Origin: Acidobacteriota bacterium
GTDB lineage: Bacteria; Acidobacteriota; Blastocatellia; Pyrinomonadales; Pyrinomonadaceae
NCBI GenBank assembly: GCA_043737915.1
Contig: JAYSZT010000001.1
Location: 5,289 to 69,288 of the forward strand
Direction: 5' to 3'
DNA length: 64,000 nt
The position numbers and the translations under genes were made by a program. Numbering within the stretch: position 1 is the stretch's first letter; every line of letters begins with the position of its first letter. This document shows, piece by piece, positions 17,072-54,652 of this stretch. Below the pieces are notes generated by a model. The model was not told the DNA's origin, ran no database searches, and worked only from the letters and a program-made list of their open reading frames with translations.

Positions 17072-18010
17072 ATGACAGCCAAAATATTGAGCGGGAAGGT
17101 GTTCGCAGACGCGATAAAGGCCGAAACTGGTGCTGAGATCGACGCACTGTTGAAGGATCACGGTTTTCGTCCGTGCCTGGTCGTTGTGCGGGTCGGCCTC
17201 GATCCGGCGTCCGAGGTTTATGTCACGAACAAGGTCAAAACTGCCGCCGAACTAGGCATTATCTCTAAACATCATCACCTGAGCGTCGAGACGACGAGTG
17301 AGGAATTACTAGAACTCGTTCGCACACTAAACGCAGATGACGATGTCGACGGCATTTTAGTTCAACTGCCGTTGCCGAGGCACATCGACGAACGCGAGGT
17401 TCTTGAGACGATCGGCCCTGAAAAAGACGTCGACGGTTTTCATCCGGTAAATGTAGGCAAATTGTCGCTCGGCTATCCGGCGCTCGCTCCCTGTACGCCC
17501 GCCGGCGTGATCGAGATATTAAAACGCTCGAATATCGAGATCGCCGGCAAACACGCAGTCGTCGTCGGCCGCAGCAACATCGTCGGCAAGCCGATGGCTT
17601 CGCTTTTATTAAAAGAAAACGCTACCGTGACGATCTGTCATTCACGAACAGCAGACCTGCCAGCCATCACGCGGCAAGCCGACATTCTCGTCGCCGCGAT
17701 CGGTCGCGCCGGGTTTATTCGAGGGGAACACATTCGCGAAGGCTCGACCGTGATCGACGTCGGCATTAATAACTTGAGCGACCCAAGCTTAGCAAGCGAG
17801 TATTTTCCCGCCGAAGATATTGAAAAACGTTCGAAGGCGATCGAAACTCGCGGCTTCACGCTCGTCGGCGATGTAAATCCGAAAGAGGCGGTGGAAAAAG
17901 CGGCATTTTTTACACCCGTACCCGGAGGCGTCGGCCTCCTGACAGTCGCCATGCTGATGAAAAATACCGTAGACGCCGCGAAGGCGAGACGCCCAAAGGT
18001 GAAAAGGTGA
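17072..18010 (+). CDS. folD: Bifunctional methylenetetrahydrofolate dehydrogenase/methenyl-THF cyclohydrolase
   Basis: The sequence contains VVRVGLDPASEVYVTNKVK, DGILVQLPLP, DVDGFHPVN, VVVGRSNIVGKPM and TPVPGGVGLLTVAML. Confidence 0.95.
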   Translation: MTAKILSGKVFADAIKAETGAEIDALLKDHGFRPCLVVVRVGLDPASEVYVTNKVKTAAELGIISKHHHLSVETTSEELLELVRTLNADDDVDGILVQLPLPRHIDEREVLETIGPEKDVDGFHPVNVGKLSLGYPALAPCTPAGVIEILKRSNIEIAGKHAVVVGRSNIVGKPMASLLLKENATVTICHSRTADLPAITRQADILVAAIGRAGFIRGEHIREGSTVIDVGINNLSDPSLASEYFPAEDIEKRSKAIETRGFTLVGDVNPKEAVEKAAFFTPVPGGVGLLTVAMLMKNTVDAAKARRPKVKR

Positions 18011-18136
18011 AAAAAATCGCAAATAAAAATAAATCGATCAACCATGAATTTCCATGTTTTCACGACTCACCATTAAACTTTTCCATTCTTCACTTTTTTC
18101 CCGTTCACCTATTTAACTTTTTCCATTTTTAACACT

Positions 18137-18442
18137 ATGAACTTTGAAGAATATCAGGCAGAAGCCCGTCAGACGGCTCTTTACCCGCGGCGGATGGCGA
18201 ATCTTGAGTATCCGACGCTCGGTCTCGCGGGCGAGGCAGGCGAGGTTGCGAACATCGTCAAAAAGATCCAACGCGATAGCGGCGGCGTCATAACCGAAGA
18301 CACTCGCGGCAAACTGCTCGACGAACTAGGCGACGTCCTCTGGTACATCTCCGCCTGCGCCGACGAACTCGGCCTGACACTCACGCAGGTCGCCGATTAC
18401 AATGTCGCGAAACTTGCGAAGCGCCACAATCGCGTCAAATAA
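18137..18442 (+). CDS. MazG-like nucleoside triphosphate pyrophosphohydrolase (single-domain)
   Basis: The 101-aa protein has the EExxE/D-type helices of the all-alpha NTP-PPase fold (GLAGEAGEVANIVKK, LLDELGDVLWYI). Confidence 0.75.
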   Translation: MNFEEYQAEARQTALYPRRMANLEYPTLGLAGEAGEVANIVKKIQRDSGGVITEDTRGKLLDELGDVLWYISACADELGLTLTQVADYNVAKLAKRHNRVK

Positions 18443-18461
18443 CGACGATTCTATTTTTGTC

Positions 18462-19064
18462 ATGCTAAAGGTCGGTCTCACAGGCTCCATCGCGGTTGGT
18501 AAGACATTTGTTTGCGGCATTTTGCGTGAGCTTGGGTGTCACGTGCTCGATGCTGATCTGACGGCGAGAGAAGTGGTGGCGAAAGGTTCTGCCGGATTGT
18601 CTGCGGTTGTCAGTGCGTTTGGAGAAGACATCTTGACCCCGACGGGCGATCTCGATCGGAAAAAGATGGGTTCGATCGTTTTCGGTGACGAGACGAAACG
18701 ATTACTGCTCAACTCGATCATTCATCCGCTTGTTTTCGAAACGCAGGATCGATGGCTACGTTCGGTCGAATCGAGCGACCCCGACGCTATCGCGGTGATC
18801 GATGCCGCTCTAATGATCGAGTCCGGAGGTTACAAACGCTTTAACAAAATAATTGTCGTCTGGTGCGAACCTGAGGTACAATTAGCTCGGTTAATGGAGA
18901 GAGACGGTCTGAATGAGGCAGACGCCAGGCTGCGGATCGCCGCACAGATGCCACAGGAAGAAAAAAAGCGAGTCGCCGATTACCTCATTGATACGTCTCC
19001 GAGTGGCGAATCGGCCCGCGATCAGACCGCAGCGATTGTGCGTCAGCTAAAATTATTTTTCTAG
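18462..19064 (+). CDS. coaE: Dephospho-CoA kinase
   Basis: From the ATG at 18462 the protein begins MLKVGLTGSIAVGKTFV (P-loop), followed by DADLTAREVV and IIHPLV. The track start at 18402 would overlap the mazG-like gene. Confidence 0.88.
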   Translation: MLKVGLTGSIAVGKTFVCGILRELGCHVLDADLTAREVVAKGSAGLSAVVSAFGEDILTPTGDLDRKKMGSIVFGDETKRLLLNSIIHPLVFETQDRWLRSVESSDPDAIAVIDAALMIESGGYKRFNKIIVVWCEPEVQLARLMERDGLNEADARLRIAAQMPQEEKKRVADYLIDTSPSGESARDQTAAIVRQLKLFF

Positions 19065-25152: not shown

Positions 25153-26175
25153 ATGGGTAACAACAGCACAATTCTTTCGGTCGACGGTCTGAAGACTTAT
25201 TTTCAGACCGAGGACGGCGTCGTCAAGGCCGTTGACGGAATCTCGTTCGAATTGAAAAAGGGCGAGACCCTTGGCATAGTCGGTGAATCGGGCTCCGGCA
25301 AATCCGTGACGAATCTGTCGGTTATGCGCCTTATCCAAGAGCCGCCGGGCAAGATCGTGGACGGTAAGGTTGTTTTTGACGGGATCGACGTGCTCGGCCT
25401 GCCGATCGCCGAAGTGCGAAAGATCCGCGGGAAACGCATCGCGATGATCTTCCAGGACCCGATGACCTCGCTGAATCCGTTCCTGAAGATCTCGAAACAG
25501 CTAACGGAGGTGACCCAACTTCATCTCGGCCACACTAAAAAACAGGCTCGCGAACATGCCATAAAAATGCTGAAACTGGTCGGGATTTCCGATGCAGAGC
25601 AGCGGATCGACAGCTACCCGCACGAATTCTCAGGCGGTATGCGGCAGCGTGTGATGATCGCGATGGCTCTCAGCTGCGACCCCGAACTTCTTATCGCGGA
25701 TGAACCGACGACCGCACTGGACGTGACAATTCAGGCTCAAATTCTCGAACTCATCAAAGACCTGAAAAAAAGAATGGGGACAAGCGTCATCCTCATCACG
25801 CACGACCTCGGCGTCGTCGCCGGAATGACCGACAAGATCATCGTCATGTACGCCGGCAAAGTTTTCGAGCAGGCTCCGACGCATGCACTATTCGCAACAC
25901 CGGCCAATCCGTACACGAAAGGTTTGCTGAAAAGCGTCCCCGACCCGGAACACGAACAAGGTACCGAACTTTATCAAATTCCCGGCCTGCCGCCCGATGT
26001 CGCCCATCTGCCGCCCGGATGCCCGTTCGCCGAGCGGTGCGACCGTGCCGAAGATATTTGCCGCAAAGACTTTCCTCCATTCGTCGAGGTCAGCCCGGGC
26101 CATCGGTCGCTCTGTCATTTCGCACGCGAAGTTTATGCCGAAAGTTCTAAAGATCTGTCGACGGAGGAACAATGA
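25153..26175 (+). CDS. Peptide ABC transporter ATPase (OppD/DppD-type)
   Basis: It has Walker A (GESGSGKSV), the signature (FSGGMRQRV), Walker B ([12 protein letters not shown]) and a C-terminal Cys-containing oligopeptide-transporter tail (PGCPFAERC...IC...LCHF). Confidence 0.92.
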
Positions 26176-26852
26176 AAAAACTATCGCTCGTTTTATTTGT
26201 CGTCTTATTCGCAACGCTTGGCTGCAAGTTCCTTGATTCGATAAAGGGCGGCTCGGGTTCAGGCAGTGGATCGGGCGGCGGTTCAGGGGCTTCGTCCGGG
26301 GGCGACCCGACGGTTGAACTAAAAGCGTCCGCGAAAAAGTTTATGGATCTCAAATCGTTCTCCGCAAAGATGGAGGGAATGGGCCAAACCGAGATCAAGT
26401 CGCAGGTAGATTTCGTCGCTCCTGACAAATTCCACGTCACATATCTTGGCGGGACCGGCGCCGGAATGGAGCTGATCTACATTGGCGGCGATTCGTATAT
26501 GAAATCGAGCGGATCAGGCGGTTGGATGAAGATGCAGAGCGATGCAAAGGCGATACCGAACCTCCGCGATTCCTTCACCGAAGAAGGTCTGAAATCACTG
26601 ACCGATGTAAAATTTGAGGGAGAAGAAACTGTCGATGGTAAACCAGCTTTCGTTTACACTTACAAAAACGTCACGCCGGTCGGCAATTATCCATTCACCT
26701 CAAAAAGCTGGATCAGTAAGAGCACTGGCCTTCCGATCAAGATCTACGTCGAATATTCTAACGGCATGCTCAAGAATATGACCGTCAATTACGATACAGA
26801 ATCGCCGATAACGATCGAGCCGCCGACAAAATCAGTGCCGATGGCTGGCTGA
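26172..26852 (+). CDS. Lipoprotein of unknown function (possibly LolA/LppX-like fold) embedded between the two ABC ATPase genes
   Basis: It has a lipobox (LFATLGC), a Gly/Ser linker (GGSGSGSGSGGGSGASSGG) and then a beta-rich domain. Its start overlaps the oppD-like stop as ATGA. The fold assignment is a guess. Confidence 0.6.
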   Translation: MKKLSLVLFVVLFATLGCKFLDSIKGGSGSGSGSGGGSGASSGGDPTVELKASAKKFMDLKSFSAKMEGMGQTEIKSQVDFVAPDKFHVTYLGGTGAGMELIYIGGDSYMKSSGSGGWMKMQSDAKAIPNLRDSFTEEGLKSLTDVKFEGEETVDGKPAFVYTYKNVTPVGNYPFTSKSWISKSTGLPIKIYVEYSNGMLKNMTVNYDTESPITIEPPTKSVPMAG

Positions 26853-26866
26853 TCAATAATTTCGTT

Positions 26867-28051
26867 ATGCTTAAATCCCTAAGCTGCCCAAAATGCGGCG
26901 CAAACCTGAGCGTCAGCGACGGTGAAAAGTCTATTAAGTGCCAATTCTGCGGCGCAACGTCGATGCTTGACATCAAGAACGACGAGCTGATATTGCCCGT
27001 GAAATTTCCTGCCTTCGAGCCTGAAAGAAGCTCTCAGAATGGCCTCATATCGCTGCGAGATCTGCAGGTTTACTATCGCTCGGGCGGTGGATTATTCACG
27101 CCTTCGAAAACTGTCAAAGCGGTTGACGGCGTTTCGCTTGAAATAAAAAAAGGCGAGACATTAGGCCTCGTCGGAGAATCTGGCTGCGGCAAATCGACGC
27201 TCGGCAAGGCAATTCTGAGATTGACCGAACCGACCGGCGGTAGCGTCTTTTATAATGGTAAAGACCTGGCGAAACTGCCGTTATCGGCAATGCGCGAACA
27301 GCGGAAGCACTTGCAAATGATATTTCAGGATCCGTACGCAAGCCTCAATCCGCGAATGACCGTCGGCGATATCATCGGCGAACCGATCCGAACCTTCCGC
27401 CTTGGCGGCGGCGGCGCCCGCGTACAGGAATTGATGGAGACCGTCGGCCTCAGCCGCCGCTTTGTAAAGCGTTACCCGCACGAATTTTCGGGCGGGCAGC
27501 GGCAACGTATCGGCATCGCCCGGGCACTCGCCGTCGATCCGGAATTCATTGTCGCCGACGAACCGATCTCCGCTCTCGACGTATCGATACAGGCTCAAAT
27601 AATGAACCTAATGGAGCGGCTACAGGCTGAAAAAGAACTAACTTATTTGTTTATTTCACACGATCTACGTGCAGTTCGCCATTTGGCAGATAGAGTTGCG
27701 GTTATGTACCTCGGCCGGATCGTCGAACTTGCCGATAGCAAGGAGATCTACAAAGACGCACTAATGCCTTACACACAGGCATTGATTTCGGCCGTACCGG
27801 TTCCCAACCCTGAGATCGAGTCTAAACGCGAGCGAATTATTTTGAAGGGTGACGTTCCTTCACCGATCGATCCACCGAAAGGCTGTCATTTTCATACCCG
27901 ATGTCAGTTCGCGATTCCTGAGTGCAAAACCGTGTCGCCGAGCCTCGTCGAGATAAAACCGCTCCATTACGCCGCATGTATACGCATCAATCCGAGCTAT
28001 CCGCATATCGCGGAGAATGAAACCTTTGGTCTCGGTGCGATCGGCATTTAA
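26867..28051 (+). CDS. Peptide ABC transporter ATPase (OppF/DppF-type), possibly with an N-terminal Cys4 zinc-ribbon extension
   Basis: It has Walker A (GESGCGKST), the signature (FSGGQRQRI), Walker B ([12 protein letters not shown]) and a C-terminal tail ([16 protein letters not shown]). N-terminal residues 1-33 read [33 protein letters not shown]. The next in-frame Met is M33 (26963), so inclusion of the ribbon depends on start choice. Confidence 0.85.
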
Positions 28052-28052
28052 A

Positions 28053-28088
28053 ACGATCGAGGCCTTGGAAAACCAAGGCCTCGATCGT
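28053..28088. terminator. Perfect 16-bp hairpin between convergent genes (likely bidirectional terminator)
   Basis: The sequence acgatcgaggccttgg-aaaa-ccaaggcctcgatcgt was read directly. It lies 2 nt after the oppF-like stop and 22 nt from the stop of the minus-strand gene. There is no long U-tract on either side. Confidence 0.7.
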
Positions 28089-28110
28089 AATTCATGATTA
28101 GCGTAGTCGA

Positions 28111-28602
28111 CTAATTAGTTGCCGTCTTCGCGTTCTCTTCGTTTCTCAATGACTTGATACGGTTATGTGCCGCAAGAATAGCATGTGACTGCTGGCTTAC
28201 AATATCAGCGATATTCGCCGGCAAATTGGTCTCGAGTGCTTTGGCGTACGCGTCTTTGGCATAATCTTCGCCCCGTTCGCATTCGTTGAGGATCGCGCCT
28301 TCGTCTTTGCCCGTGATCGCCGATTTCAGGTCGATCCAACCGCGATGTACTGCCGCCGTCAACGATCCTGATGTTTCCGGATCACCGCCGAGTGAACGAA
28401 CAGTTTGCTGCAGAACGCCGACAAATTCAGACCGTTGTTGCGAAAATTCATAGAAAATAGTTTTCAGGTCTGATCTTTCGATCCCTTCTGCGGCATCCTT
28501 AAATCCGTCCTGGCCGTCTTTACAGATCTCGATCAACCCATTGAGAGTTGAGATCACATCGTCGTTGTTGATCGTCTTTGTTCCTTCGAATTCGTTGCTC
28601 AT
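28111..28602 (-). CDS. PA2169/DUF2383-like four-helix-bundle (ferritin-like) protein
   Basis: From the ATG at 28602 (GGAGG lies 8 nt upstream) the protein begins MSNEFEGTKTINNDDVISTLNGLIEICKDGQDGFKDAAEG, followed by a repeat of similar helices (AVHRGWIDLK..., CERGEDYAKDAYAKALE). Confidence 0.6.
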   Translation of the reverse strand: MSNEFEGTKTINNDDVISTLNGLIEICKDGQDGFKDAAEGIERSDLKTIFYEFSQQRSEFVGVLQQTVRSLGGDPETSGSLTAAVHRGWIDLKSAITGKDEGAILNECERGEDYAKDAYAKALETNLPANIADIVSQQSHAILAAHNRIKSLRNEENAKTATN

Positions 28603-28835
28603 AATAAATGCCTCCGTGAAGTTTATAAAGTATTCTGAACGCGAGTATGTTCGCATTTCTAAGGATAATTTTGTTTTGACGAACTTACTGTACGGTGGCG
28701 AACACTTCGATGAGATTCCTCGTTTAGAGGGCTTTTATGTGCATTCTAATAGTATTATTAATTGAAATGCTGTCGGCATTAGCCGTTTTAGCTGTTACAT
28801 ATTAGTTCAGCTGACGGCGTATTATTTGATCTTAA

Positions 28836-30914
28836 ATGGGAGTGCAACGAAAATTACCGGGAAAATTAGTTCTGGACCGGCTGGCCGATGAGAGCGGTCT
28901 AGCGATCGTAATTATCGACCGCGGCTCGGTAGAACTTTCCGTTTCCAACAACAATTCCATCTGCCGGAGCCTAAATCCCGGCGGCGAAATTTCGGCTGCG
29001 TGCAAGGCATTTTGTGGAAAAGCTCTCGAAAATGCGACCGATGCTGGTGAAACAATTTCGTACACCTGTCACGCCGGGCTCGATTGCCGAGCGATCTCAA
29101 TGGTTAATGAAGGCAAGCAAGTAGTGGCGATCGTCGGGCGTCTATTTACAAAAGCCAACAACTACCGCAAAGCGACTGAGCGTGCGATCAACGGCGACTG
29201 GCAACATTTTCCACCGTCAGAATTCTTCGAAAACGTTCTCCTTACAGGTTCGTCTGAATTGCTTGATGAGACCGTCAAACAATTGACCGATCTGGCCCCC
29301 GCGATCGAAGTCTTTGCCCCGGACACTCCGCCGACCAATGTCGAATCTTCTGCTGACGAGATCGCACGGCGAGCGGCTGAGCTTAATCAACCGGCGCCGG
29401 ACGAACCCGCGTTTCCCGATCCTCAACCGAGCGGACGCGTCCCGGAGGTCGAGGCATGGCATTCGTTCTTCGGCTCGCTGCTCGATCAGCATTACAAACC
29501 GGCGTGCGACGCGATGCTGGAATTTATCGCTCGGCAATATGGGTTTAGATCGCTTGTTTGGCTTGAACGCCGATATAATCGGTTCGAAGTGCTTTCAAGC
29601 TTGGGGAATGCGGAAAACGGTAATATCCGGCTTGGCATCGCGACGGATGACATGCGCCTGCTCGATGCCGCAGCCAACGAGATGCCGCTTGAACTCGGCG
29701 AAAGATCGAGCGAGAAAGGAAATGGCGGAATTGGCCGTTCAATGTATCTTTTTCCATTTCCGGTCGGAACGGAGATCCCGTCAGCTCTAGCCGTACTAGA
29801 TCATATTGGGAACGAAAAGGTTAAGCACCGGATCGCCCGTTTTTGCCATTCAGTCGCCTCAGAGATGGAGATTCTTCGTCTTCGCAGCGAGGTTTCACAA
29901 CGCGACTCACTCGCCCGGGCAGTGAGAAAGTTCGGTGACAGCCTCAAAACTATCGACAACGAGGATTTTTGGATGCAACTCACGCTGACCTCAGCAGAGC
30001 TGCTCCAATCGGAGAGGGCGTCGCTGATGGTTCTCGACGAAAAGTCGGGTTTACTTGAAATGAAAGCTGCAGTCGGGGCGAAAAATGACATTTACGGTGC
30101 GAGCATGCCTGGTGAACGCGTGTCTCAGATAGTCTTTAATAAAGGAAAAGCAGCGATCGTCGCCGACGTTTCGGTCTCAGGACTTTTGCCGGCTCCCGAC
30201 GATAGGCGATACAAGACCTCTTCGTTCATTAGCAGTCCCGTTTCTCTAGGCAACCGAAATATAGCGGTCATCAACTTTACCGATAAGGCGAACGGAGCCA
30301 ATTTTGATAAACACGATCTCGACCTGATCGAGGCTATTAGTCCGCAGATAGCAGTTGCCATTGACCGTGCCGGGTTAAAGGAAAAGGCGGGCGAGTTTCG
30401 ACAGCTGTCGGTCACAGACGCTCTTACCGGATTGCTAAATCGTCGTTATATCGAGGAACGCCTGATCGAGGAGGTCAAACGATCGAACCGCCACGGGTAT
30501 CCGATGAGTTTTATGATGCTCGACGTTGACCAATTTAAGTCGTACAACGATGAATTCGGACATCCGGCGGGAGATGAGGCTCTTAAAATGGTCAGCAATC
30601 TACTAAAAGAGACCTTGCGCGGTGCTGATGTCGCGGCCCGATACGGCGGCGAAGAATTTGCGATACTACTTCCTCAGACCACCGATGACGAAGCTGTCAC
30701 AATCGCTGAACGAATACGTGTAAATATTGAAGCCGCAAAATTTCCCTATCGAAAGATAACTGTAAGCATCGGCGTGGCAAGCTGTTCGGGCGAACTTTGC
30801 TCTGCAAAGGTATTGGTTTCTACGGCGGATCGGGCACTCTACGATGCCAAACGATGCGGCCGCAACAGTGTACGTTTGTTTGCTGACATGGAAAAGTCAT
30901 TGAGCGAGAATTAG
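28836..30914 (+). CDS. Diguanylate cyclase with a PocR-like Cys/His sensory N-terminus and GAF-like domains (PocR-GAF-GGDEF)
   Basis: The N-terminus reads ...NNNSICRSLNPGGEISAACKAFCGKALENATDAGETISYTCHAGLDCRAISMVNEGKQVVAIVG, which is PocR-like. The GAF-like middle contains SERASLMVLDEKSGLLEM...NIAVINFTDK. The GGDEF domain contains DALTGLLNRRY, DVDQFKSYNDEFGHPAGDEAL and RGADVAARYGGEEFAILL, so the RxxD I-site is 5 residues before GGEEF. Confidence 0.85.
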   Translation: MGVQRKLPGKLVLDRLADESGLAIVIIDRGSVELSVSNNNSICRSLNPGGEISAACKAFCGKALENATDAGETISYTCHAGLDCRAISMVNEGKQVVAIVGRLFTKANNYRKATERAINGDWQHFPPSEFFENVLLTGSSELLDETVKQLTDLAPAIEVFAPDTPPTNVESSADEIARRAAELNQPAPDEPAFPDPQPSGRVPEVEAWHSFFGSLLDQHYKPACDAMLEFIARQYGFRSLVWLERRYNRFEVLSSLGNAENGNIRLGIATDDMRLLDAAANEMPLELGERSSEKGNGGIGRSMYLFPFPVGTEIPSALAVLDHIGNEKVKHRIARFCHSVASEMEILRLRSEVSQRDSLARAVRKFGDSLKTIDNEDFWMQLTLTSAELLQSERASLMVLDEKSGLLEMKAAVGAKNDIYGASMPGERVSQIVFNKGKAAIVADVSVSGLLPAPDDRRYKTSSFISSPVSLGNRNIAVINFTDKANGANFDKHDLDLIEAISPQIAVAIDRAGLKEKAGEFRQLSVTDALTGLLNRRYIEERLIEEVKRSNRHGYPMSFMMLDVDQFKSYNDEFGHPAGDEALKMVSNLLKETLRGADVAARYGGEEFAILLPQTTDDEAVTIAERIRVNIEAAKFPYRKITVSIGVASCSGELCSAKVLVSTADRALYDAKRCGRNSVRLFADMEKSLSEN

Positions 30915-30919
30915 GACCG

Positions 30920-33127
30920 ATGAAACGATTTTCTGATCAAAGAACATTAGTAAAGAAGCCGAACGGCGAGTTCATCGGCCACACGGAGGAACTGAATCTG
31001 CTGATGACGCACGCTCGTTCAGGACGCTCTGACGGCTTGACCTTGCTCGCAGCACCCAATTCCGGAGCTTCGACACTACTCAGGCAAGTGTTCGACCGGC
31101 TTTTTGCCGAGCAGGAAGAGATAATTCCAGTCTATTTTTGCGTTAAAAAAAGCGACGGTTCGGCGTTGCAATCGGCTCGTCGATTCTTGCGTGAGTTTTT
31201 GGTACAGACGGTCGCATTTCGCCGACGCAACACATTCGTCCTCGACGCGTCTCCCGACATTAACGAGATCGCAGAACTTGCCGTTCCGGCAGATGGAGTA
31301 TGGATCGACCGATTGATCGAGACCGCGAGTGAATACGGAAATGATGACGACCCCTCACGCCTGCGTAGCTTTCTGAGTTCGCCGATTCGAGCGACAGCAA
31401 GCGGCGCGAACCTTTTTGTGATGATCGACGATCTCCACGAGATCGCGACTTTGACAGACGGCGAAGCATTTCTCGAAACCCTTTCGAACGTATTCGCCCG
31501 GACAGATATGCCGTTCGTTCTCAGTGGGCGACGCCGTTTTCTTTATGGAAAAACACCTTTCAGATCGATGTCGCTCGAACGCCGATCATTCTCCGAGACT
31601 GGTGAGTTGGTCGATTCCATAGCCGCGCAAAATAGGGTGCCGATCAACGAAGAAACTCGCGACCTGATCGCTGTGCAGTTGCAGGGTGACCCTCTTTTTA
31701 TAAACAACGTTTTTTCAGCCGCCGCGGAAAACGGACAGACCTTCGATAGCTTTCAGCAATTTGAGAACGTTTATTCGGACGAGCTGTTCGGCGGTCGTAT
31801 TAGCCGTTATTTCGATGCAATGTTCGACGAGCTGCTTCCCGATTCGGCTGCCCAAAGCAGGATCGTCGCGATGATCGCCGACCTTTTGGGCGATCGCTCG
31901 AACAAGGCGACGCTTGAGTTTTGGAAGACCCACGCACAACTTTCGCCTGCCCAATTCCGTTCGGTGACGACCGGTTTAAACGATCGCGAATTCATTACAC
32001 TCGATGCAAATTCGATCGAGGCCTTCCCTGATAACATAGTTTTTACCGACTACATTAACGCTCGCCTCCGGCTCGAAACCAGTAGGAACGGACGCTCAAG
32101 AATAGTCGGCGACGAGCTTACCAAGTATGTAAAAAGAGCTCCGCGCTTGATGGCCCGGCATTACCGTCAGCTCTCCGCGGTCGGCTTGCGTGGAGTGATG
32201 CAGGGATTCGACGGACGCAAGATCGCGAGGTCGCTGCTTGATTACGCTGTCTTCAAGTCCGACCTGAGAGGTTTGAGTGAGGCAGAAATGCAGCAGGCCA
32301 TAGCAACATCTGACGAAAAAATAAGACTGCCGCAGGTCATCTACGCAGCTCACAGCGTGGCTTTCTACCGTCAGATCGGAGAACTTATCGAGGCCGGACG
32401 ATCGGCTATCGCTGTAGGTTTCGAGCGTGGTGACCTGGAAACCGATGACGAAGACATCGTCTGGATCGCCGCTGAGATCGATTCAAAACTCGAGGCCGCA
32501 GCAGATGTCGTCGAGTTCTGGTGCGACCGCCTCGAAATGGTGGCCGCGAACTGCGACTTTAAGTCATTCAAAATATGGTTGGTTGCTCCAGAAGGATTTT
32601 CCGTTGAGGCTCTGCAGGTACTCAGCGACCGAAACGCTTTTGGTTCAAGCCGCAAACAGGTCGATCTGCTTGTTCAGAGCCTCAAAGGTTCGGCCTCTGA
32701 AGCCGTTGACGCTTCGGATGAATACGAGATCGTTATTCCGATGGGCGACGATACCGAAATGATCGCCGCTCACACCATCGAGGAGATCGCCAAACGTCAC
32801 AATTTTCCGGCAAAGGCGATCAATCAGATCAAAACGGCGCTGGTCGAGGCATGCATCAATGCGTCGGAACACTCACTCAGCCCGGATCGCAAGATCTATC
32901 TAAAATTTGCCGTAACCGACGATAAAATTACGATCGATATCTCAAATCGCGGTCTGCGTCTATTAGATAAACCCGTCAGACTCATCACAACTCAAGAAGG
33001 TCGCCGAGGCTGGGGACTCAAACTGATCCAAGGTTTGATGGACGAGGTTAAAGTAGAGCAGACCGACGATGGAACCCAGATCCTGATGGCGAAGTTCATA
33101 ACCAGAAATAAATCTCAGGCTGTTTAA
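30920..33127 (+). CDS. Large fusion protein: STAND/AAA_16-like NTPase module with degenerate Walker A, helical middle region, and a C-terminal RsbW/SpoIIAB-type serine kinase (HATPase_c_2) domain
   Basis: The N-terminus reads FIGHTEELNLLMTHARS...LTLLAAPNSGASTLLRQVF, which sits at the P-loop position but lacks the GK[ST] lysine. A Walker-B-like LFVMIDDLHEI follows. The C-terminus has AAHTIEEIAKRHNFPAKAINQIKTALVEACINASEHS (N-box) and GRRGWGLKLIQGLMDEVKVEQTDDGTQILMAKF (G-box region). It starts 5 nt after the cyclase stop. Confidence 0.7.
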   Translation: MKRFSDQRTLVKKPNGEFIGHTEELNLLMTHARSGRSDGLTLLAAPNSGASTLLRQVFDRLFAEQEEIIPVYFCVKKSDGSALQSARRFLREFLVQTVAFRRRNTFVLDASPDINEIAELAVPADGVWIDRLIETASEYGNDDDPSRLRSFLSSPIRATASGANLFVMIDDLHEIATLTDGEAFLETLSNVFARTDMPFVLSGRRRFLYGKTPFRSMSLERRSFSETGELVDSIAAQNRVPINEETRDLIAVQLQGDPLFINNVFSAAAENGQTFDSFQQFENVYSDELFGGRISRYFDAMFDELLPDSAAQSRIVAMIADLLGDRSNKATLEFWKTHAQLSPAQFRSVTTGLNDREFITLDANSIEAFPDNIVFTDYINARLRLETSRNGRSRIVGDELTKYVKRAPRLMARHYRQLSAVGLRGVMQGFDGRKIARSLLDYAVFKSDLRGLSEAEMQQAIATSDEKIRLPQVIYAAHSVAFYRQIGELIEAGRSAIAVGFERGDLETDDEDIVWIAAEIDSKLEAAADVVEFWCDRLEMVAANCDFKSFKIWLVAPEGFSVEALQVLSDRNAFGSSRKQVDLLVQSLKGSASEAVDASDEYEIVIPMGDDTEMIAAHTIEEIAKRHNFPAKAINQIKTALVEACINASEHSLSPDRKIYLKFAVTDDKITIDISNRGLRLLDKPVRLITTQEGRRGWGLKLIQGLMDEVKVEQTDDGTQILMAKFITRNKSQAV

Positions 33128-33226
33128 CACGTTTCTATTGTATTTAAGCCCCTGTATGTGCTAAAAATACGGTTCAAGTAGTTTCTACGTTTATAAGTTC
33201 TAAATTAAGCAGAGGAATATAATTAG

Positions 33227-33547
33227 GTGATCATAGAAAATCTGTTTGAGGCCGCGCAATTGGACAATTCGAAAACGGCAGTTGTGCTTGCGGGTGACTA
33301 TTTGAATAAGCTCGCCGGCGAAAAGATCGAGCGCGAGTGCAAAACTAAGCTCGACCAAGGCTGCAAACAGCTGATCGTCGATTTTTCGCAGACTGAGATC
33401 ATAAATAGTATCGGCATCTCGATCCTGCTCGGCGTTATCGATTCCGCCGAGAATTCAGGTGCGAAAGTTGTATTTTCCGATCTAAACCAGGACTCGGTTG
33501 AGCTTTTTGAAACGCTCGGACTGACAAAACACGTAACAATTGCGTAA
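33227..33547 (+). CDS. STAS-domain anti-sigma-factor antagonist-like protein (SpoIIAA/RsbV family)
   Basis: The 106-aa protein uses a GTG start with GAGGA upstream. It contains QLIVDFSQTEIINSIGISILLGVI, with a serine at the DSxG-equivalent phospho-acceptor position, and VVFSDLNQDSVELFETLGL. Confidence 0.8.
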   Translation: MIIENLFEAAQLDNSKTAVVLAGDYLNKLAGEKIERECKTKLDQGCKQLIVDFSQTEIINSIGISILLGVIDSAENSGAKVVFSDLNQDSVELFETLGLTKHVTIA

Positions 33548-33628
33548 ATAACTGATCGTAAATCGTTCTTAGCAAACACGGGGCGGAATTATGGCTCCCA
33601 ACCATCGCGGTGCAAGGCTTATTTACGA

Positions 33629-34936
33629 TTGACCATTCACAAATCTATGATCGAGAACAGGCACAAGTTGATCCACGCATTTGGCGCATTGGCCGAATTG
33701 GGACAGGAGGTTGCGAATAAGAATAGCTTTCAGGAGACGATCCGCACCTCGCTTCACTTGATCTCAGGCGCCCTTGGAATAATGCGTGGCGGCGTCGCTA
33801 GGTATTCGCGGTTCGGTCATGAACTGAACATGCTCGCCGTTCGCGGGCTCGGCGATGATTTTCCTTTGAGTTTAACGCTTTGCATGGAGGATGAACGCCA
33901 GTTCCTGACCAACGGCCTTAATGCTATCGAGATCGCAAACGCTCGAGTCCTGCCCTTCTTTCAGGTTTACGACGCGAGCTTTGAGCGGAAACGCATCGAA
34001 CTTCTGCTGCCGCTGATCGTTCGCGACGAAATTGTAGGAGCCGTATTTCTTGGTGAAAAAGCAACTGCTGAACCTTACACGACCTACGAAAAAGAAATTG
34101 TGTGTGCTATGGGCCGCCATATCGGCGTTGCGATCGCGCAGCGAAATCTGATGGCCGAGATCGAGCGCCACTCGGAGGAAAATCGCCGCCTTGTCGACGA
34201 TATGCGAACGACCTACAACGACACTGTCAAGGCATTCGCCACGGCGATCGATTGTAAAGACAAATATACCGAGGGGCACTCGGTACGCGTTGGTAAATAT
34301 TCTGAGATCATTGCAATGGAACTCGACTGGGGCACGCCAGAGATCGAAGGTGCCGCGGTCGCCGGGTATCTGCACGATGTCGGCAAGTTAACAGTCGAAC
34401 GCAAGATCATCAACGCTCCGTACCGCATCAACGCTAAGGAATCGGCCGAACTCAACAAACATCCGGGTGTCGGCTACGAGATCCTAATGCCGATTCATCA
34501 TCCCTACGCCAATGTGCCGCTGGCGGCCAAATATCACCACGAACGCCTCGACGGCCGCGGTTATCCCGACGGCCTCTATGATCGGGAAATACCGTACATT
34601 GCAAAGCTAGTGAATTTGGCTGATTCATTCGACGCGATGACTACCGATCGGCCGTACAAAGCCCGCCGCCCTGCCGCAGATGTCGTCCTGGATCTCCAGC
34701 GAAACTCCGGAAAGCAGTTCGCACCGGAAATAGTGACCGCATTTTTGAAGGGAATGTTGAAAGAATTGAACGGCGAGAACAAAGATAAGCGTTTTCGCCG
34801 TCTGCTAGGCCGCGAATATATGGAGGCGGAGGCAATCGTGCCGGTTATTCGCCAAACGCTTAACGACATGGCACCGACCTCGCCGCTGACTTATATCCAC
34901 CCCGATCCACAGATCGGAGATCAGCCGATCATTTAG
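33629..34936 (+). CDS. GAF-domain HD-GYP c-di-GMP phosphodiesterase
   Basis: The GAF-like N-terminal half contains LLLPLIVRDEIVGAVFLGEK. The HD-GYP motifs are HSVRVGKYS, GYLHDVGKL, HPGVGYEIL and KYHHERLDGRGYPDGL. The start is TTG at 33629 or ATG at 33647. Confidence 0.88.
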   Translation: MTIHKSMIENRHKLIHAFGALAELGQEVANKNSFQETIRTSLHLISGALGIMRGGVARYSRFGHELNMLAVRGLGDDFPLSLTLCMEDERQFLTNGLNAIEIANARVLPFFQVYDASFERKRIELLLPLIVRDEIVGAVFLGEKATAEPYTTYEKEIVCAMGRHIGVAIAQRNLMAEIERHSEENRRLVDDMRTTYNDTVKAFATAIDCKDKYTEGHSVRVGKYSEIIAMELDWGTPEIEGAAVAGYLHDVGKLTVERKIINAPYRINAKESAELNKHPGVGYEILMPIHHPYANVPLAAKYHHERLDGRGYPDGLYDREIPYIAKLVNLADSFDAMTTDRPYKARRPAADVVLDLQRNSGKQFAPEIVTAFLKGMLKELNGENKDKRFRRLLGREYMEAEAIVPVIRQTLNDMAPTSPLTYIHPDPQIGDQPII

Positions 34937-35816
34937 GAATTTCAAGTAATTGAACGAATTTCTTGGCCGCCAGCGAAAGGTTGCGATCGCTGCGGTAAAT
35001 GACGCCAACCGTACGGACCCAATATTTTTCAGCCAATTCGACCACTGAAAGTGTGCCCGTACGCTTGGCTTCCGACACCGACGTTTCGGGAACTATCGCC
35101 AGGCCGAACCCGACCTCGACCGCCCGTTTTATCGTTTCGATGTTATCAAATTCGGCTACCTTTTTTACCTCGACCCCATTTTCCTTCAAGATCCTGTCCA
35201 TTGCTTTGCGGGTCGGGACATCACGTTCAAACAGGACAAATGGCTCGCCGTTTAGGTCGTTGACCTTCACTTTTTTACGCTTCGCATATTTATGATCGGG
35301 AGGCGTGATCAGCACAAGACGATTATTCGGCATCGGCGTGATGGTCAGACCGCGTCGCGGTTCGGGAAACGCGACGACACCGAGTTCGACCGCCCCGCTC
35401 AAAACGTCTCGAACAACGCGGGTCGTACGCGAGTATTCGAGATCGATCTTGGCGGTCGGAAATTTGGTCATAAACTCGCGCACCTTACTTGGTAGTTCAT
35501 GAAGGCCAACACTATAAACCGTAGCGACCTTGATCGTCCCGCCGATCTTACCGACGACCCCGCGAAGACTTTCCTGGAGTTCGTCGTAGGCAACTAGGAC
35601 GTGCTGCGATTCTTTATAAAAGACGTCGCCTGCCGGGGTTAGTTTTACCTCACGCCGTCCGCGGACGCGCTCGAGCAAGCGGCGCTTGAATTTTTCTTCG
35701 AGAGTTCGAATTTGCTGGCTGACCGCCGACTGCGTAATAAAATTTCGCTCAGCGGCAAGTGAAAAACTCTCTAGATCAACGAGATCGCAAAATACTTTTA
35801 GGGTTTCTATATGCAT
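34929..35816 (-). CDS. LysR-family transcriptional regulator
   Basis: It has an N-terminal wHTH (MHIETLKVFCDLVDLESFSLAAERNFITQSAVSQQIRTLEEKF) and a LysR substrate-binding domain. It is divergent from sdhCAB, and its 3' end overlaps the HD-GYP gene by 8 nt. Confidence 0.9.
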   Translation of the reverse strand: MHIETLKVFCDLVDLESFSLAAERNFITQSAVSQQIRTLEEKFKRRLLERVRGRREVKLTPAGDVFYKESQHVLVAYDELQESLRGVVGKIGGTIKVATVYSVGLHELPSKVREFMTKFPTAKIDLEYSRTTRVVRDVLSGAVELGVVAFPEPRRGLTITPMPNNRLVLITPPDHKYAKRKKVKVNDLNGEPFVLFERDVPTRKAMDRILKENGVEVKKVAEFDNIETIKRAVEVGFGLAIVPETSVSEAKRTGTLSVVELAEKYWVRTVGVIYRSDRNLSLAAKKFVQLLEIPK

Positions 35817-36037
35817 ATTCGTCAGCCGTCCTCTCGCAAATTAATCAAATGGCGAGCTTATAACCAAAATATATATTAGCGTTTCTGCACAGCCGCCGCA
35901 AACGAATTCATTTTCCCTAATAATTAAATTCGCGTACTATTGGAAAGTATCGTGTTGTGATTGCCGATTTTGAGATTTACATCTAAAATTCCTAATTACG
36001 GAAATCTATAACAGCATGCGACAGAGCGACTGAATAA

Positions 36038-36754
36038 ATGTCTATAAAGTTCAGCAACACCTTTTTATTACGCAAACTACACCAGATCACCGGCATCGTG
36101 CCGCTGGGAATGTTTTATTTCGTTCATTTATGGACAAACTCGGCCGCTCTCAATGGGTCGGCGGTCTATAACGAACACGTTCAGAAGATCCACGATTTTC
36201 CTTATCTACTCTTCATTGAAATATTCGGCATATTTTTGCCGCTTATTTTTCACTCCGTCTACGGGATCATCATCTCGTCCGAGGGCAAATCGAATGTGCT
36301 CAATTACGGTTACGGACGAAACTGGTTCTACATGTTTCAGCGGGCGACGGGCATTTTCCTGTTCGTATTTCTGCTGTTCCACGTACTAAATTTCAGGTTC
36401 GGCCTCATCCCGGGATTAAACCTGACGCCGGTCGCTGGAAATGCCGATCAGGCATACACGATCGTTGCCAACGAATTCCGGATCGGCTGGGTGTTGGCGA
36501 TCTACATACTCGGCGTGACCGCGACCGCGTGGCACCTTGCGTACGGATTCTTTTTATTCGCGGTCGATTGGGGCATCGTTATTGGCGAAAAAGCCCAGCG
36601 AATGGTTCTTTACGGCTGTCTCAGCCTGGCTTTGTTTTTATCGTTGCTCGGGATTAACATGGCGTTCGCGTTCGTTCGGCCATGCGGCCTTTTGCCACAG
36701 GCGTTGTGCGAAACGGTCCAAAAACCGGTATCCGGGCCAGCTACTAAGTTTTAA
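36038..36754 (+). CDS. sdhC: Succinate dehydrogenase/fumarate reductase cytochrome b subunit (b558-type, five TM)
   Basis: This is a polytopic membrane protein with conserved His residues in TM helices (FVHLW, FHSVYG, FHVLNF, AWHLAYG). It lies directly upstream of sdhA. Confidence 0.8.
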   Translation: MSIKFSNTFLLRKLHQITGIVPLGMFYFVHLWTNSAALNGSAVYNEHVQKIHDFPYLLFIEIFGIFLPLIFHSVYGIIISSEGKSNVLNYGYGRNWFYMFQRATGIFLFVFLLFHVLNFRFGLIPGLNLTPVAGNADQAYTIVANEFRIGWVLAIYILGVTATAWHLAYGFFLFAVDWGIVIGEKAQRMVLYGCLSLALFLSLLGINMAFAFVRPCGLLPQALCETVQKPVSGPATKF

Positions 36755-52898: not shown

Positions 52899-53126
52899 AT
52901 GGAAACTGTTATTACCGACGAAGTTCTGGCCGAGTTCGGCAAGCGTATTCAGCGTTGTTACGGGTGTTTTATTGCTTATCATCTTAAAGACATGTTCCTT
53001 GGCGAGGACGTGACATTTTACTGCGACTACTGCAAAGACGAGACAATGTTTCACTTTGATGAGTTTGCCCGGCTGCTCGACATGTCCAAATTGAAAGAGG
53101 TCGCGGACGACGATCACCACCATTAA
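52899..53126 (+). CDS. Small Cys4 (zinc-ribbon-like) protein with an acidic/His C-terminal tail
   Basis: The 75-aa protein has two CxxC pairs (CYGC and CDYC, 18 residues apart) and ends ...EVADDDHHH. Its stop overlaps the FHA gene start (TAATG). Confidence 0.55.
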   Translation: METVITDEVLAEFGKRIQRCYGCFIAYHLKDMFLGEDVTFYCDYCKDETMFHFDEFARLLDMSKLKEVADDDHHH

Positions 53127-54652
53127 TGAAGCCAGTAGTTCTTCACATCAAGTCGCCGGACGGCGAACTCAACTTAACGCTCGACGGCGAACTGACCATC
53201 GGCCGCACCGATCTTTCCACTCTCGCGATCAATGACAGTGGCCTCTCGCGTAAAAATACTACGTTTTTCATCGACGGCGAAGATGTACTCGTCGTTGACG
53301 AAGAATCGTTGAACGGCACATTTCTGAATGGTAGCCAGATCACCGGGCCTCCGCGAATTCTAAAAAACGGGGATGAGTTGAAGATCGGCAGTTCGACGCT
53401 TATACGTATCGCGTTCGGAGAAGGCAACACCGGGCATCGAAGCGAGGATCCGCCGACAACAAAGATAGACGCTCCGCCTAAGGCCTACTCGATCGGACAA
53501 GTACCACTCCAGCCGGCTCCCGCTGTAACTCCGCCGCCAAGATCGTTAACAAACCGCCCGCAGATGCTCTTGATCGCGGCGGGAGTGATGACGTTTTTGA
53601 TCATTTTTGTCGCCCTGATCGCTATTCTTATTGTTTCGCGCAATCCGAGTTCCGCAGCTGTACCGGGCAAGACTCCGCTTCCGATCAATCCTTCGAGCGT
53701 CATTCCGCGCCGTGTTATCGACCCGCTGGGCGGTGAGGACGAGGATAATCTCGACGACCTTATCGCGTCTTGGGAAACCGAAGAAAAAGAGATCGACGCG
53801 GCCACGATTTCTGATGTCGCAGTTGAGCCCGCCAACACCGAGGAAGCCGATCTAAATGTCACCGCTGCCTTCCTCGCCGAACGCCAGAAAAAGGCATTTG
53901 AGCCGCGAACCGGCGACACCGGCATCCGGCCTGCCGGGCTAAATCCGCCGAAGGAACTCTTTGGGGATGGAGTTATCAAACAGAAGGCAAAGCTCCGCGA
54001 GATGAACACCGGCGGATACAAACAGCCGCTCGATTTTGCCGAATTGGCGGAGAAGCGTATCAAAAAAGAGCTGCTCGAGATGCCGATGGCGAGCAAGAGT
54101 TTCTACCTCGACGTCGGCGGTAGCGCGAGCGACGGACCTTTCTCATCGTTTAGTTTTGGCAGCGGCAATACCGAGATACCTCAGGGTTCGGCGAAATATC
54201 AAACACTCTCGACGCTCGCGGCAAATTTCGCGGGGCAAAAATACGACCTGGGGAACGCCAGCGATCGCAAACAAATGCGCATTCGGCTCCTCAGAATGTT
54301 CAACCCTCGAGCGAAGCCGATCTTGCAAGAGCTAGCCGACGCCTACTTCGGCAAGTTCGGCCGACCGCTGCGCGTGACTTCGCTGACGCGTTCGATGGAT
54401 TACCAGATAAGCCTCAACGCGACCAACGCCAACTCCTTCAAGGTTCGCGGGGAAGGATCGCTGCCGCCGCACACCTCGGGTTGTGCATTCGACCTCGCCC
54501 GCAAACACATGACCGCCGACGAGCAAAATTTCGTAATGAATAAACTCGCCGAAATGGAAAACGCCAACAAACTCGACGCTCTCATCGAATATGGCGAAAA
54601 TGCCTGCTTTCACGTCTTTATCTATTCGGACGGTCTGCCGCCAAAGATGTAG
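53126..54652 (+). CDS. FHA-domain protein with a single TM helix and a C-terminal LAS/M15-like (VanY/YcbK-type) peptidase-like domain
   Basis: The FHA domain reads LTIGRTDLSTLAINDSGLSRKNTTFFIDGEDVLVVDEESLNGTFLNGSQI. A Pro-rich linker precedes the TM helix MLLIAAGVMTFLIIFVALIAILIV. The C-terminus has LRVTSLTRSMDYQISL...GEGSLPPHTSGCAFDL...ENACFHVFIY, an HxxGxAxD ... xH pattern as in LAS zinc peptidases. Confidence 0.7.
   Translation: MKPVVLHIKSPDGELNLTLDGELTIGRTDLSTLAINDSGLSRKNTTFFIDGEDVLVVDEESLNGTFLNGSQITGPPRILKNGDELKIGSSTLIRIAFGEGNTGHRSEDPPTTKIDAPPKAYSIGQVPLQPAPAVTPPPRSLTNRPQMLLIAAGVMTFLIIFVALIAILIVSRNPSSAAVPGKTPLPINPSSVIPRRVIDPLGGEDEDNLDDLIASWETEEKEIDAATISDVAVEPANTEEADLNVTAAFLAERQKKAFEPRTGDTGIRPAGLNPPKELFGDGVIKQKAKLREMNTGGYKQPLDFAELAEKRIKKELLEMPMASKSFYLDVGGSASDGPFSSFSFGSGNTEIPQGSAKYQTLSTLAANFAGQKYDLGNASDRKQMRIRLLRMFNPRAKPILQELADAYFGKFGRPLRVTSLTRSMDYQISLNATNANSFKVRGEGSLPPHTSGCAFDLARKHMTADEQNFVMNKLAEMENANKLDALIEYGENACFHVFIYSDGLPPKM

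Follow-up and report, generated by a model that had tools for sequence, protein, structure and literature searches.

A Lysine-Less AAA+/STAND-Like Module Fused to an RsbW-Like GHKL Domain in a Conserved Cyclic di-GMP Gene Cassette of Acidobacteria

Introduction

Which output can a partner-switch protein serve when its RsbW-like domain is fused to a P-loop module that lacks the catalytic lysine? This question is raised by one gene in a 64,000-nucleotide stretch of the genome of an Acidobacteriota bacterium from the Pyrinomonadaceae (assembly GCA_043737915.1, contig JAYSZT010000001.1, positions 5,289 to 69,288 of the forward strand), hereafter called the window. The gene encodes a previously uncharacterised Acidobacteria protein of 735 residues, the target of this study, whose names in the databases are limited to "ATP-binding protein" or "RsbW." An initial annotation, made from the sequence alone, described an AAA_16/Arch-ATPase-like module with a lysine-less P-loop, followed by about 400 residues of helical sequence and an RsbW/SpoIIAB-like serine kinase. 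All sequence strings quoted in it are in place in the translation (FIGHTEELNLLM at residues 18–29, LLAAPNSGASTLL at residues 42–54, LFVMIDDLHEI at residues 165–175, VEACINASEH at residues 642–651, and GRRGWGLKLIQGLMDEV at residues 694–710). It named no characterised example of such a fusion, and full-text literature searches likewise found none; no paper describing the architecture or the surrounding gene cassette was returned.

The target was read there apart from its surroundings, and the strongest functional clue, a conserved cassette of GGDEF, STAS, and HD-GYP genes, was missed. Based on this context, we propose, with a probability of roughly 0.55, that the target is the hub of a partner switch that couples synthesis and breakdown of cyclic di-GMP (c-di-GMP), acting as the central switch or scaffold of a four-gene cassette. 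On this reading, it would be a partner-switch protein to which a new module has been fused, whose nucleotide site is atypical, and whose output, the c-di-GMP enzymes, is also new.

Genomic Context of the Target Gene

In the window, the target gene is preceded by the gene for a PocR-GAF-GGDEF diguanylate cyclase and followed by the genes for a single-domain STAS protein and an HD-GYP phosphodiesterase (Table 1). The cyclase contains a GGEEF active site and an RxxD I-site, and its stop codon lies 5 nt before the ATG of the target. The STAS protein is of the anti-sigma-antagonist type, with Ser61 located within an NSIG motif. This serine is invariant in 33 orthologues and in five distant cassettes, and it aligns with S58 of SpoIIAA (the SpoIIAA sequence was entered manually).

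The context of the target was scanned in one genome per GTDB species. Relatives are present in at least 495 genomes, and 80 loci were retained for neighbour counts, all of them, save one bin labelled Actinomycetota, from Acidobacteriota-type metagenome-assembled genomes (Pyrinomonadales/Blastocatellia). Of 70 informative species loci, 65 have a GGDEF gene in the same orientation as the immediate upstream neighbour of the target. Downstream, a STAS gene is observed in 30 of 68 species loci, being adjacent in 22 cases and 0.4–6 kb away in the other eight, and it is followed by an HD-GYP gene in all 30 STAS-positive loci. Overall, the linkage pattern is one of two tight pairs, cyclase–target and STAS–HD-GYP, which are usually joined. 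The median gap between the stop codon of the cyclase and the start codon of the target is about 7 nt, and there are six overlaps of 4 nt; this suggests translational coupling of the two genes. Judging from their motifs, the partner enzymes look active: GG[DE]EF is retained in 73/73 cyclase orthologues and the RxxD I-site in 70/73, and both the HD and GYP motifs are present in 29/29 HD-GYP orthologues.

The cassette is not restricted to close homologues. The same four-gene order is observed around relatives with an intact Walker A motif and only ~24–30% identity to the target (loci L084, L089, and L091). In locus L090, the target homologue, STAS, and HD-GYP genes are kept, and a giant TPR gene takes the upstream place of the cyclase. 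One lineage, represented by the protein P0258 (L086–L088; three contigs, one protein), has a PocR-GAF-GGDEF gene upstream and neither STAS nor HD-GYP downstream. P0258 and another relative, P0256, have an intact Walker A motif and a decayed GHKL domain, with the N-box Asn replaced by Ser and the G2 box lost. The P0258 loci provide a hint that the presence of STAS tracks the integrity of the GHKL domain.

The flanks of the cassette also show some continuity. A FolD gene and a CoaE-like gene are located upstream of it both in the window (17072–19064, with an Opp transporter in between) and in the distant P0258 lineage (L086, 1900–3470), where they are directly adjacent to the cassette. This shared flank suggests long-term vertical inheritance of the locus. 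A scan of positions 28000–36100 for promoters and terminators yielded counts equal to the shuffled expectation and hence was uninformative.

Domain Architecture of the Target Protein

From the N-terminus, the target comprises a degenerate AAA+/STAND-like module, a helical/winged-helix region, an α/β domain with a possible restriction-endonuclease (REase)-like fold, and an RsbW-like GHKL domain. The claimed fusion of a P-loop AAA+/STAND-like module with an RsbW/SpoIIAB-like GHKL domain is confirmed by Pfam, by profile searches, and by Foldseek comparison with the PDB. The full-length AlphaFold2 model, for which 27 homologues were used as input, has a mean predicted local distance difference test score (pLDDT) of 80 and a predicted template modelling score (pTM) of 0.56.

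In the model, residues 1 to ~420 adopt the predicted fold of an AAA+ module of the ATPase_2/Orc1-Cdc6/NB-ARC type. The top PDB matches are two archaeal "Walker-type" ATPases, 2fna (Sso1545; E 1.1e-7, template modelling (TM) score to the target 0.58) and 2qen (PABY2304; TM 0.61), followed by Orc1/Cdc6 and then by the NB-ARC domains of plant NLRs (NRC3, ZAR1), CED-4, and Apaf-1. The fold search hence agrees with the AAA_16/Arch-ATPase-like layout that had been recognised in the first ~220 residues. At the level of Pfam, NPHP3_N clears its cut-off on the target (25.8–29.8 versus 24.8 bits), and ATPase_2 (11.9 versus 33.2 bits), AAA_16 (21 versus 32.6 bits), and AAA_22 score below theirs. The ATPase_2 cut-off is cleared by the distant relatives P0262 (43.4 versus 33.2 bits) and P0400.

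The region described earlier as ~400 residues of helical sequence falls into two parts. Residues 231–420 form a helical lid, a winged-helix-like element at approximately residues 329–370, and further helices; the Foldseek alignments to 2fna, 2qen, and NLRs, ~420 columns long, extend over this part. Residues 421–592 are a separate α/β domain. No Pfam match was obtained for residues 231–598 at E-values up to 10, and PDB profile searches gave nothing meaningful for this region. Two further elements of the module were placed by position only: G203-x-R205-R206, invariant in the 27 homologues and following strand 199–204, is a candidate for the sensor-1 Arg, and G256-D-P258 in the modelled lid is a GxP-like motif, mostly retained among homologues as G256-[DN]-P258.

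Loss of the Walker A Lysine

The P-loop of the target has canonical length and geometry, with strand 39–44, the loop, and helix 50–64 in the model, and Ala50 occupies the position of the lysine, as had been noted. The Walker B motif LFVMIDD indeed retains D170-D171; the second aspartate is replaced by N, G, A, S, and other residues in many relatives, and D170 is invariant. In a close set of 27 homologues (48–74% identity), the loop follows the consensus L-L-[AS]-A-P-x-x-G-x-S-E-L-L-R-Q, in which P46, G49, and S51 are the same throughout and the residue at the Lys position differs between sequences.

To a profile of residues 1–598, searched against 1.84 billion cluster representatives (50% identity clusters), 689 clusters match at E < 1e-3, nearly all of them proteins of 700–840 residues matching end to end. 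Motifs were counted in an alignment of 211 full-length members. The Walker A Lys is missing in 201 of them, with A, S, V, T, L, I, C, Q, or G at position 50; since this position varies freely, it can be argued that the side chain there is no longer used. GK[ST] is kept in the remaining ten, which have the same overall architecture. Nine of these are basal (P0236, P0249, P0252, P0253, P0256, P0258, P0259, P0262, and P0267) and also have a canonical hhhhD[DE]; one is nested.

On a neighbour-joining (NJ) tree rooted on the most divergent pair, the 201 Lys-less sequences form essentially one nested clade, with the nine Lys-bearing sequences basal to it. Because the basal relatives keep GK[ST] and the Lys-less ones form essentially a single nested clade, the loss of the lysine is, on this tree, an ancient decay shared by the whole clade within a genuine P-loop family. 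The sole Lys-bearing member inside the clade is P0171, a protein of 715 residues from a 3.9-kb Logan contig with the loop SPPGGGKSEL. Its lysine is either a reversal or a sign of imperfect NJ topology.

The initial annotation had suggested that an intact GKS/T in homologues would point to a sequencing or lineage-specific artefact. A sequencing or assembly artefact is excluded, as 201 of 211 members lack the lysine and the surrounding P46, G49, and S51 are invariant. The Lys-less loop is a conserved family trait, not a peculiarity of one genome, and the ten intact members leave this objection valid only insofar as the lysine was lost long ago in one lineage.

The RsbW-Like Domain

The C-terminal domain matches HATPase_c_2 (PF13581) at residues 616–725 with an E-value of 4.8e-18 and 65.8 bits, against a cut-off of 27.4. 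The family profile matches RsbW (6m36) by sequence at E 6e-12, and SpoIIAB as well; likewise, in Foldseek the domain superposes on RsbW of Bacillus subtilis (6m36) with a target-normalised TM of 0.93, and also on SpoIIAB. The assignment to RsbW/SpoIIAB-like HATPases therefore stands. The scores with NCBIfam models are much lower than the equivalog cut-offs: 57.1 and 49.2 versus 145 and 155 bits for RsbW, and 43.3 versus 135 bits for SpoIIAB. In HMMER alignments, Asn676 stands opposite the G1 Asp of RsbW (VADEG) and SpoIIAB (VRDEG; D81). Because the G1 Asp is missing, the equivalog cut-offs are not reached, and the context of a sigma factor and a PP2C phosphatase is absent, the domain, although homologous to RsbW/SpoIIAB, should be named RsbW-like and not RsbW.

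Other parts of the nucleotide site are strongly conserved. The residues without variation in the close set of 27 homologues include the catalytic-type Glu643, the Mg-binding Asn647, those of the G2 box, G718-T719, R677, R680, D683, R695, and R696; W698 is nearly invariant. The N-box Asn is retained in 208 of 211 members, down to ~24% identity. We read the GHKL nucleotide site, on its residues, as retained but altered. A search for stand-alone relatives of this domain returned only fragments of the same family, and therefore nothing was learnt about an Asn at the G1 position in other RsbW-like proteins.

The α/β Domain

Modelled alone, residues 421–592 form an independent α/β fold with a pLDDT of 85.5. 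The domain has no Pfam match and no PDB sequence match. The Foldseek matches are to proteins of the PD-(D/E)XK type; these matches, namely AspBHI (E 1.4e-3), EndoMS/NucS (3.3e-3), MspJI, the N-domain of RPB5, and AF1548, are all weak, with E-values from 1.4e-3 to 0.1, none below 1e-3, and query-normalised TM of 0.3–0.4. The domain contains the conserved motif E519-I-[DE]-S522-K523-L-E525 (nt 32474–32494), followed by FWCDRLEM. Among the 211 members, both are almost invariant in the Lys-less clade and only there.

In the Walker-A-intact basal branch (P0236–P0267), the corresponding segment is not conserved and reads, for instance, ALINSKEPL or AVNTSPAAI. Thus, the P-loop and the α/β motif are complementary: an intact P-loop is found with a degenerate motif, and a degenerate P-loop with an intact one. 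Archaeal ATPase_2 proteins often carry a C-terminal DUF234 domain, possibly of the PD-(D/E)XK type. A link between DUF234 and the α/β domain is unconfirmed here: Pfam gave no match, and a literature search returned only unrelated papers on DUF2345.

Table 1. Features of the target gene and its cassette in the window. Residue numbers refer to the target protein.
Feature	Coordinates	Strand	Evidence or comment
Target gene	30920..33127	+	ATG-to-stop open reading frame (ORF), 735 aa
AAA+/P-loop core, residues 1–230	30920..31609	+	NPHP3_N 29.8 bits; Foldseek 2fna, 2qen, Orc1/Cdc6, NB-ARC
Degenerate Walker A, residues 44–52, AAPNSGAST	31049..31075	+	Ala50 in place of invariant Lys
Walker B, residues 165–171, LFVMIDD	31412..31432	+	D170 invariant
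Helical lid, winged-helix-like element, and helical region, residues 231–420	31610..32179	+	AlphaFold2 secondary structure
α/β domain, residues 421–592, possible restriction-endonuclease-like fold	32180..32695	+	AlphaFold2 model, weak Foldseek matches
RsbW/SpoIIAB-like GHKL domain, residues 599–735	32714..33124	+	HATPase_c_2, RsbW profile and fold match
N-box E643/N647	32846-32872	+	E-x3-N
Atypical G1 box residue N676	32945-32947	+	Aligned to G1 Asp of RsbW/SpoIIAB
G2 box RRGWG	32999-33016	+	R695-R696-G697-W-G699
PocR-GAF-GGDEF diguanylate cyclase, 692 aa	28836..30914	+	Pfam GGDEF E 1.9e-46, GAF_2, PocR
Single-domain STAS protein, 106 aa, GTG start	33227..33547	+	Pfam STAS E 1.1e-8, NCBIfam ant_ant_sig
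HD-GYP phosphodiesterase, 435 aa, weak GAF-like N-terminal region	33629..34936	+	HD_5 E 2.1e-28, HD E 1.3e-15

Other Genes in the Window

The remaining scanned part of the window contains housekeeping genes, including those for PBP2, a Clp ATPase, FolD, the Opp transporter, succinate dehydrogenase, BamA, histidine biosynthesis (his genes), and PPK2. A gene for a DUF2383 protein (ferritin-like four-helix bundle) is located upstream of the cyclase gene in divergent orientation (28111–28656, − strand). It is found in most Pyrinomonadales loci, 2.3–3.5 kb upstream of the target, and is absent from the distant cassettes; therefore, it probably reflects lineage synteny and lies outside the module. 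On the other side, the HD-GYP gene and the convergent gene for a LysR-family regulator (34929–35816, − strand) share 8 nt at their 3′ ends (34929–34936); the regulator gene precedes the succinate dehydrogenase genes. In another locus (L001), an HTH_1/LysR_substrate gene is also found upstream of the Sdh genes, with three genes between it and the HD-GYP gene.

Upstream of the DUF2383 gene, a 226-residue Gly/Ser-rich lipoprotein-like ORF (26172–26852, + strand) lies between two genes for oligopeptide-type ABC ATPases. The second of these (26867–28051, + strand) encodes an N-terminal extension of ~60 residues with a zinc-ribbon-like motif CPKC...CQFC. The same layout is observed in L001, where a 221-residue ORF is followed by a 431-residue ATPase. 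Another uncharacterised signalling-type architecture is provided by a 508-residue protein (53126–54652, + strand), which has an FHA domain at the N-terminus and DUF5715 at the C-terminus.

Discussion

The constant position of the target inside a conserved cassette of c-di-GMP genes is the reason why it is probably the switch or scaffold of this cassette. From the folds, motif states, and gene linkage observed here, and from their conservation, we infer the interactions, kinase activity, oligomerisation, and direction of regulation of the following model. The C-terminal RsbW-like domain would engage the STAS protein in a partner switch according to the bound nucleotide, and would probably phosphorylate its Ser61. 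The STAS protein, free or bound, would set the activity of the co-encoded HD-GYP enzyme. The AAA+/STAND-like module and the α/β domain may together form an oligomeric platform on which the cyclase, probably coupled to the target in translation, would dock. The outcome would be a reciprocal switching of c-di-GMP synthesis and degradation. The ancestral platform was possibly driven by a working P-loop, and in the Lys-less clade the module would now act as a hydrolysis-independent structural or allosteric element. Conservation provides evidence that the GHKL domain is still functional, as the N-box, the G2 box, and the Ser of the STAS protein are kept, and in the P0258 lineage a decayed N-box goes with the lack of a downstream STAS gene. 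Serine-kinase activity of the domain also appears plausible. A precedent for the proposed mode of control is the STAS protein HsbA of Pseudomonas aeruginosa, which binds and controls the diguanylate cyclase HsbD (PMC5085249).

Several observations weigh against this model. The G1 residue is Asn in 193 and Ser in 18 of the 211 members, and Asp in none of them. According to the literature, HATPase domains conserve the G1 Asp absolutely, and it forms a hydrogen bond with adenine (PMC9137472). Since it is replaced in the entire family, the domain may bind ATP and act as a kinase weakly, in an altered way, or not at all; RsbW homologues without kinase activity are on record (PMC7693655). Thus, the earlier label of a serine kinase is not a safe one: the RsbW-like fold, the N-box, and the G2 box agree with it, and the adenine-binding residue does not. 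No PP2C phosphatase gene was detected by Pfam in the cassettes examined or among 24 ORFs of the window, the rest of the genome not having been searched. STAS and HD-GYP genes are missing within 6 kb in over half of the species loci. The domain-to-domain arrangement in the full-length model is uncertain, given its pTM of 0.56. Finally, P46, G49, S51, D170, R205, and R206 are invariant despite the loss of the lysine. The P-loop pocket is therefore still under selection for something, and it may still bind a ligand of some kind and not be a mere scaffold.

Some of these points fit another scenario, possible but rather unlikely in our view, in which the target is a pure pseudo-enzyme scaffold. Both nucleotide sites would be non-catalytic, and the RsbW-like domain would bind the STAS protein, the cyclase, or the phosphodiesterase without phosphorylation, resembling an anti-sigma-type binding protein without kinase activity, with a signalling enzyme as the sequestered partner instead of a sigma factor. 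The loss of the G1 Asp in all 211 members and of the Walker A Lys in 201, together with the lack of a PP2C gene in the cassette or the scanned window ORFs, speaks for such a scaffold, as do the RsbW homologues documented as kinase-negative and still binding their partners (PMC7693655). However, the invariance of Glu643, Asn647, the G2 glycines, and G718-T719, with the N-box Asn kept in 208/211, is hard to explain without a nucleotide, and the Ser of the STAS protein is invariant as well. The retained site could also have acquired a different ligand. It is conceivable, but doubtful, that the GHKL pocket was retuned from ATP to GTP or c-di-GMP by the Asn or Ser at G1 and an Arg-rich lid, so that the target would read the substrate or product of the cassette and feed back on the cyclase and phosphodiesterase via the STAS protein. 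The G1 residue is Asn or Ser in every member. Other parts of the site are retained: the Mg-binding N-box is kept (208/211), and in the lid, N-R-G-L-R-L-x-D ... R-R-G-W-G, the residues R677, R680, D683, R695, and R696 are invariant and W698 nearly so. GTP-using and c-di-GMP-degrading enzymes flank the target in all cassettes. The amide of Asn can donate a hydrogen bond to O6 of guanine, while Asp accepts one from N6 of adenine, and binding of c-di-GMP by a GHKL CA domain is known for CckA. On the other hand, Hsp90 and GyrB with a D-to-N mutation simply no longer bind ATP, the literature search found no GTP-specific GHKL precedent, and the argument is purely inferential. If true, the target would represent a new class of c-di-GMP/GTP receptor on an AAA+ platform without nucleotide hydrolysis, and it would close a feedback loop between the co-encoded cyclase and HD-GYP enzyme through the STAS partner switch.

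The nearest profile and fold matches of the C-terminal domain are the anti-sigma factors RsbW and SpoIIAB, and the adjoining STAS gene is of the anti-sigma-antagonist type. Nevertheless, there is very little to recommend a conventional anti-sigma factor with its sigma factor encoded elsewhere, the STAS protein as antagonist, and the c-di-GMP genes merely co-regulated. No sigma factor gene is present in any of the cassettes examined or among the 24 scanned window ORFs, the scores are far under the NCBIfam RsbW/SpoIIAB equivalog cut-offs (57 versus 145 bits), and the tightest linkage of the target is to the cyclase, not to STAS. Least credible of all is a role in anti-phage defence or as a nuclease, with a STAND-type NTPase and an REase-like effector served by signalling from a GGDEF-family cyclase. 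The STAND/NLR-like fold matches, the weak PD-(D/E)XK-like ones, and the conserved E-x-[DE]-S-K-x-E motif would be expected in such a system, but the Walker-A-intact branch does not have the REase-like motif, and the sensor domains of the cyclase are of the usual PocR/GAF kind and accompanied by an I-site. In addition, the cassette looks vertically inherited over hundreds of species. We set this reading aside because no PADLOC model matches the four cassette proteins, a generic HD match aside, and the cassette lies in conserved synteny with housekeeping genes (those for FolD, CoaE, the Opp transporter, succinate dehydrogenase, and BamA, and his genes).

Partner-switching modules and c-di-GMP networks are among the most widespread bacterial signalling schemes, and only a small number of examples in Proteobacteria, such as HsbA–HsbD, are known to connect the two directly. 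If the target is the hub of a partner switch that couples synthesis and breakdown of c-di-GMP, the cassette would be a compact self-contained unit that brings together a cyclase, a phosphodiesterase, a STAS protein, and an RsbW-type hub. The family also offers a natural series from an intact to a Lys-less P-loop on one scaffold, with which one can ask what a STAND/AAA+ module contributes after the loss of hydrolysis. A GHKL family that universally lacks the "absolutely conserved" G1 Asp and keeps the rest of the site tests the rules of nucleotide recognition by GHKL domains. In addition, the cassette gives access to second-messenger control in Acidobacteria, a phylum that is abundant in soil and has been little studied. 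Should the target be only a kinase-dead scaffold, it still represents a well-defined new domain architecture and operon, and the interest is more modest.

Comparison with Known Systems

The closest resemblance at the C-terminus is to the RsbW/RsbV and SpoIIAB/SpoIIAA pairs of Bacillus. The last 137 residues of the target have the same GHKL fold, with the N-box and G2 box kept, and the neighbouring gene encodes a single-domain STAS protein in which the Ser is conserved. The differences concern size, active site, and context. The target has 735 residues versus ~145 in RsbW and SpoIIAB, with ~600 extra N-terminal residues that comprise the AAA+ module and the α/β domain; its G1 Asp is replaced by Asn; and its operon contains c-di-GMP enzymes and no sigma factor or PP2C gene. 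In genetic organisation, the cassette is similar to the HsbR–HsbA–HsbD pathway of P. aeruginosa, where a multidomain RsbW-type protein and a STAS protein are also linked to a GGDEF cyclase. HsbR has the architecture REC-PP2C-RsbW and thus its own phosphatase and receiver, whereas the module fused in the target is a degenerate AAA+/STAND-like ATPase with a possibly REase-like domain. Unlike the Hsb pathway, the unit described here includes an HD-GYP phosphodiesterase, and it is the gene for this enzyme, not that for the cyclase, with which the STAS gene is linked.

The N-terminal module shares the P-loop core, helical lid, and winged helix with the ATPase_2 family (PF01637; Sso1545, PABY2304), Orc1/Cdc6, and the NB-ARC domains of STAND proteins, as well as the Walker B motif; the Arg pair after β4 and the GxP-like motif, both placed by position, are candidates for further common elements. 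It differs from them in the absence of the Walker A Lys and in scoring far under the ATPase_2 cut-off. No member of ATPase_2, Orc1/Cdc6, or STAND NB-ARC is known to carry a C-terminal RsbW-like domain. Natural degeneration of AAA+ proteins is itself familiar: the clamp-loader δ′ and Orc2/3 are degenerate AAA+ subunits that serve as structural elements. As in these proteins, the AAA+ fold is kept in the target, catalytic residues of the P-loop are lost, and a scaffolding role is presumed. However, δ′ and Orc2/3 are subunits of hetero-oligomers beside active ATPases, while in the target the degenerate module shares one chain with a signalling domain, and no active paralogue is apparent nearby. 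An RsbW-like GHKL domain embedded in a large signalling protein is also known from Mycobacterium tuberculosis Rv1364c (sensor-PP2C-GHKL-STAS), for which loss of kinase activity is the title subject of Sachdeva et al. (2008), as cited in PMC7693655. In Rv1364c, the partner domains are PAS, PP2C, and STAS, and the protein is linked to SigF; in the target, they are the AAA+ and possibly REase-like domains, and the link is to the enzymes of c-di-GMP turnover.

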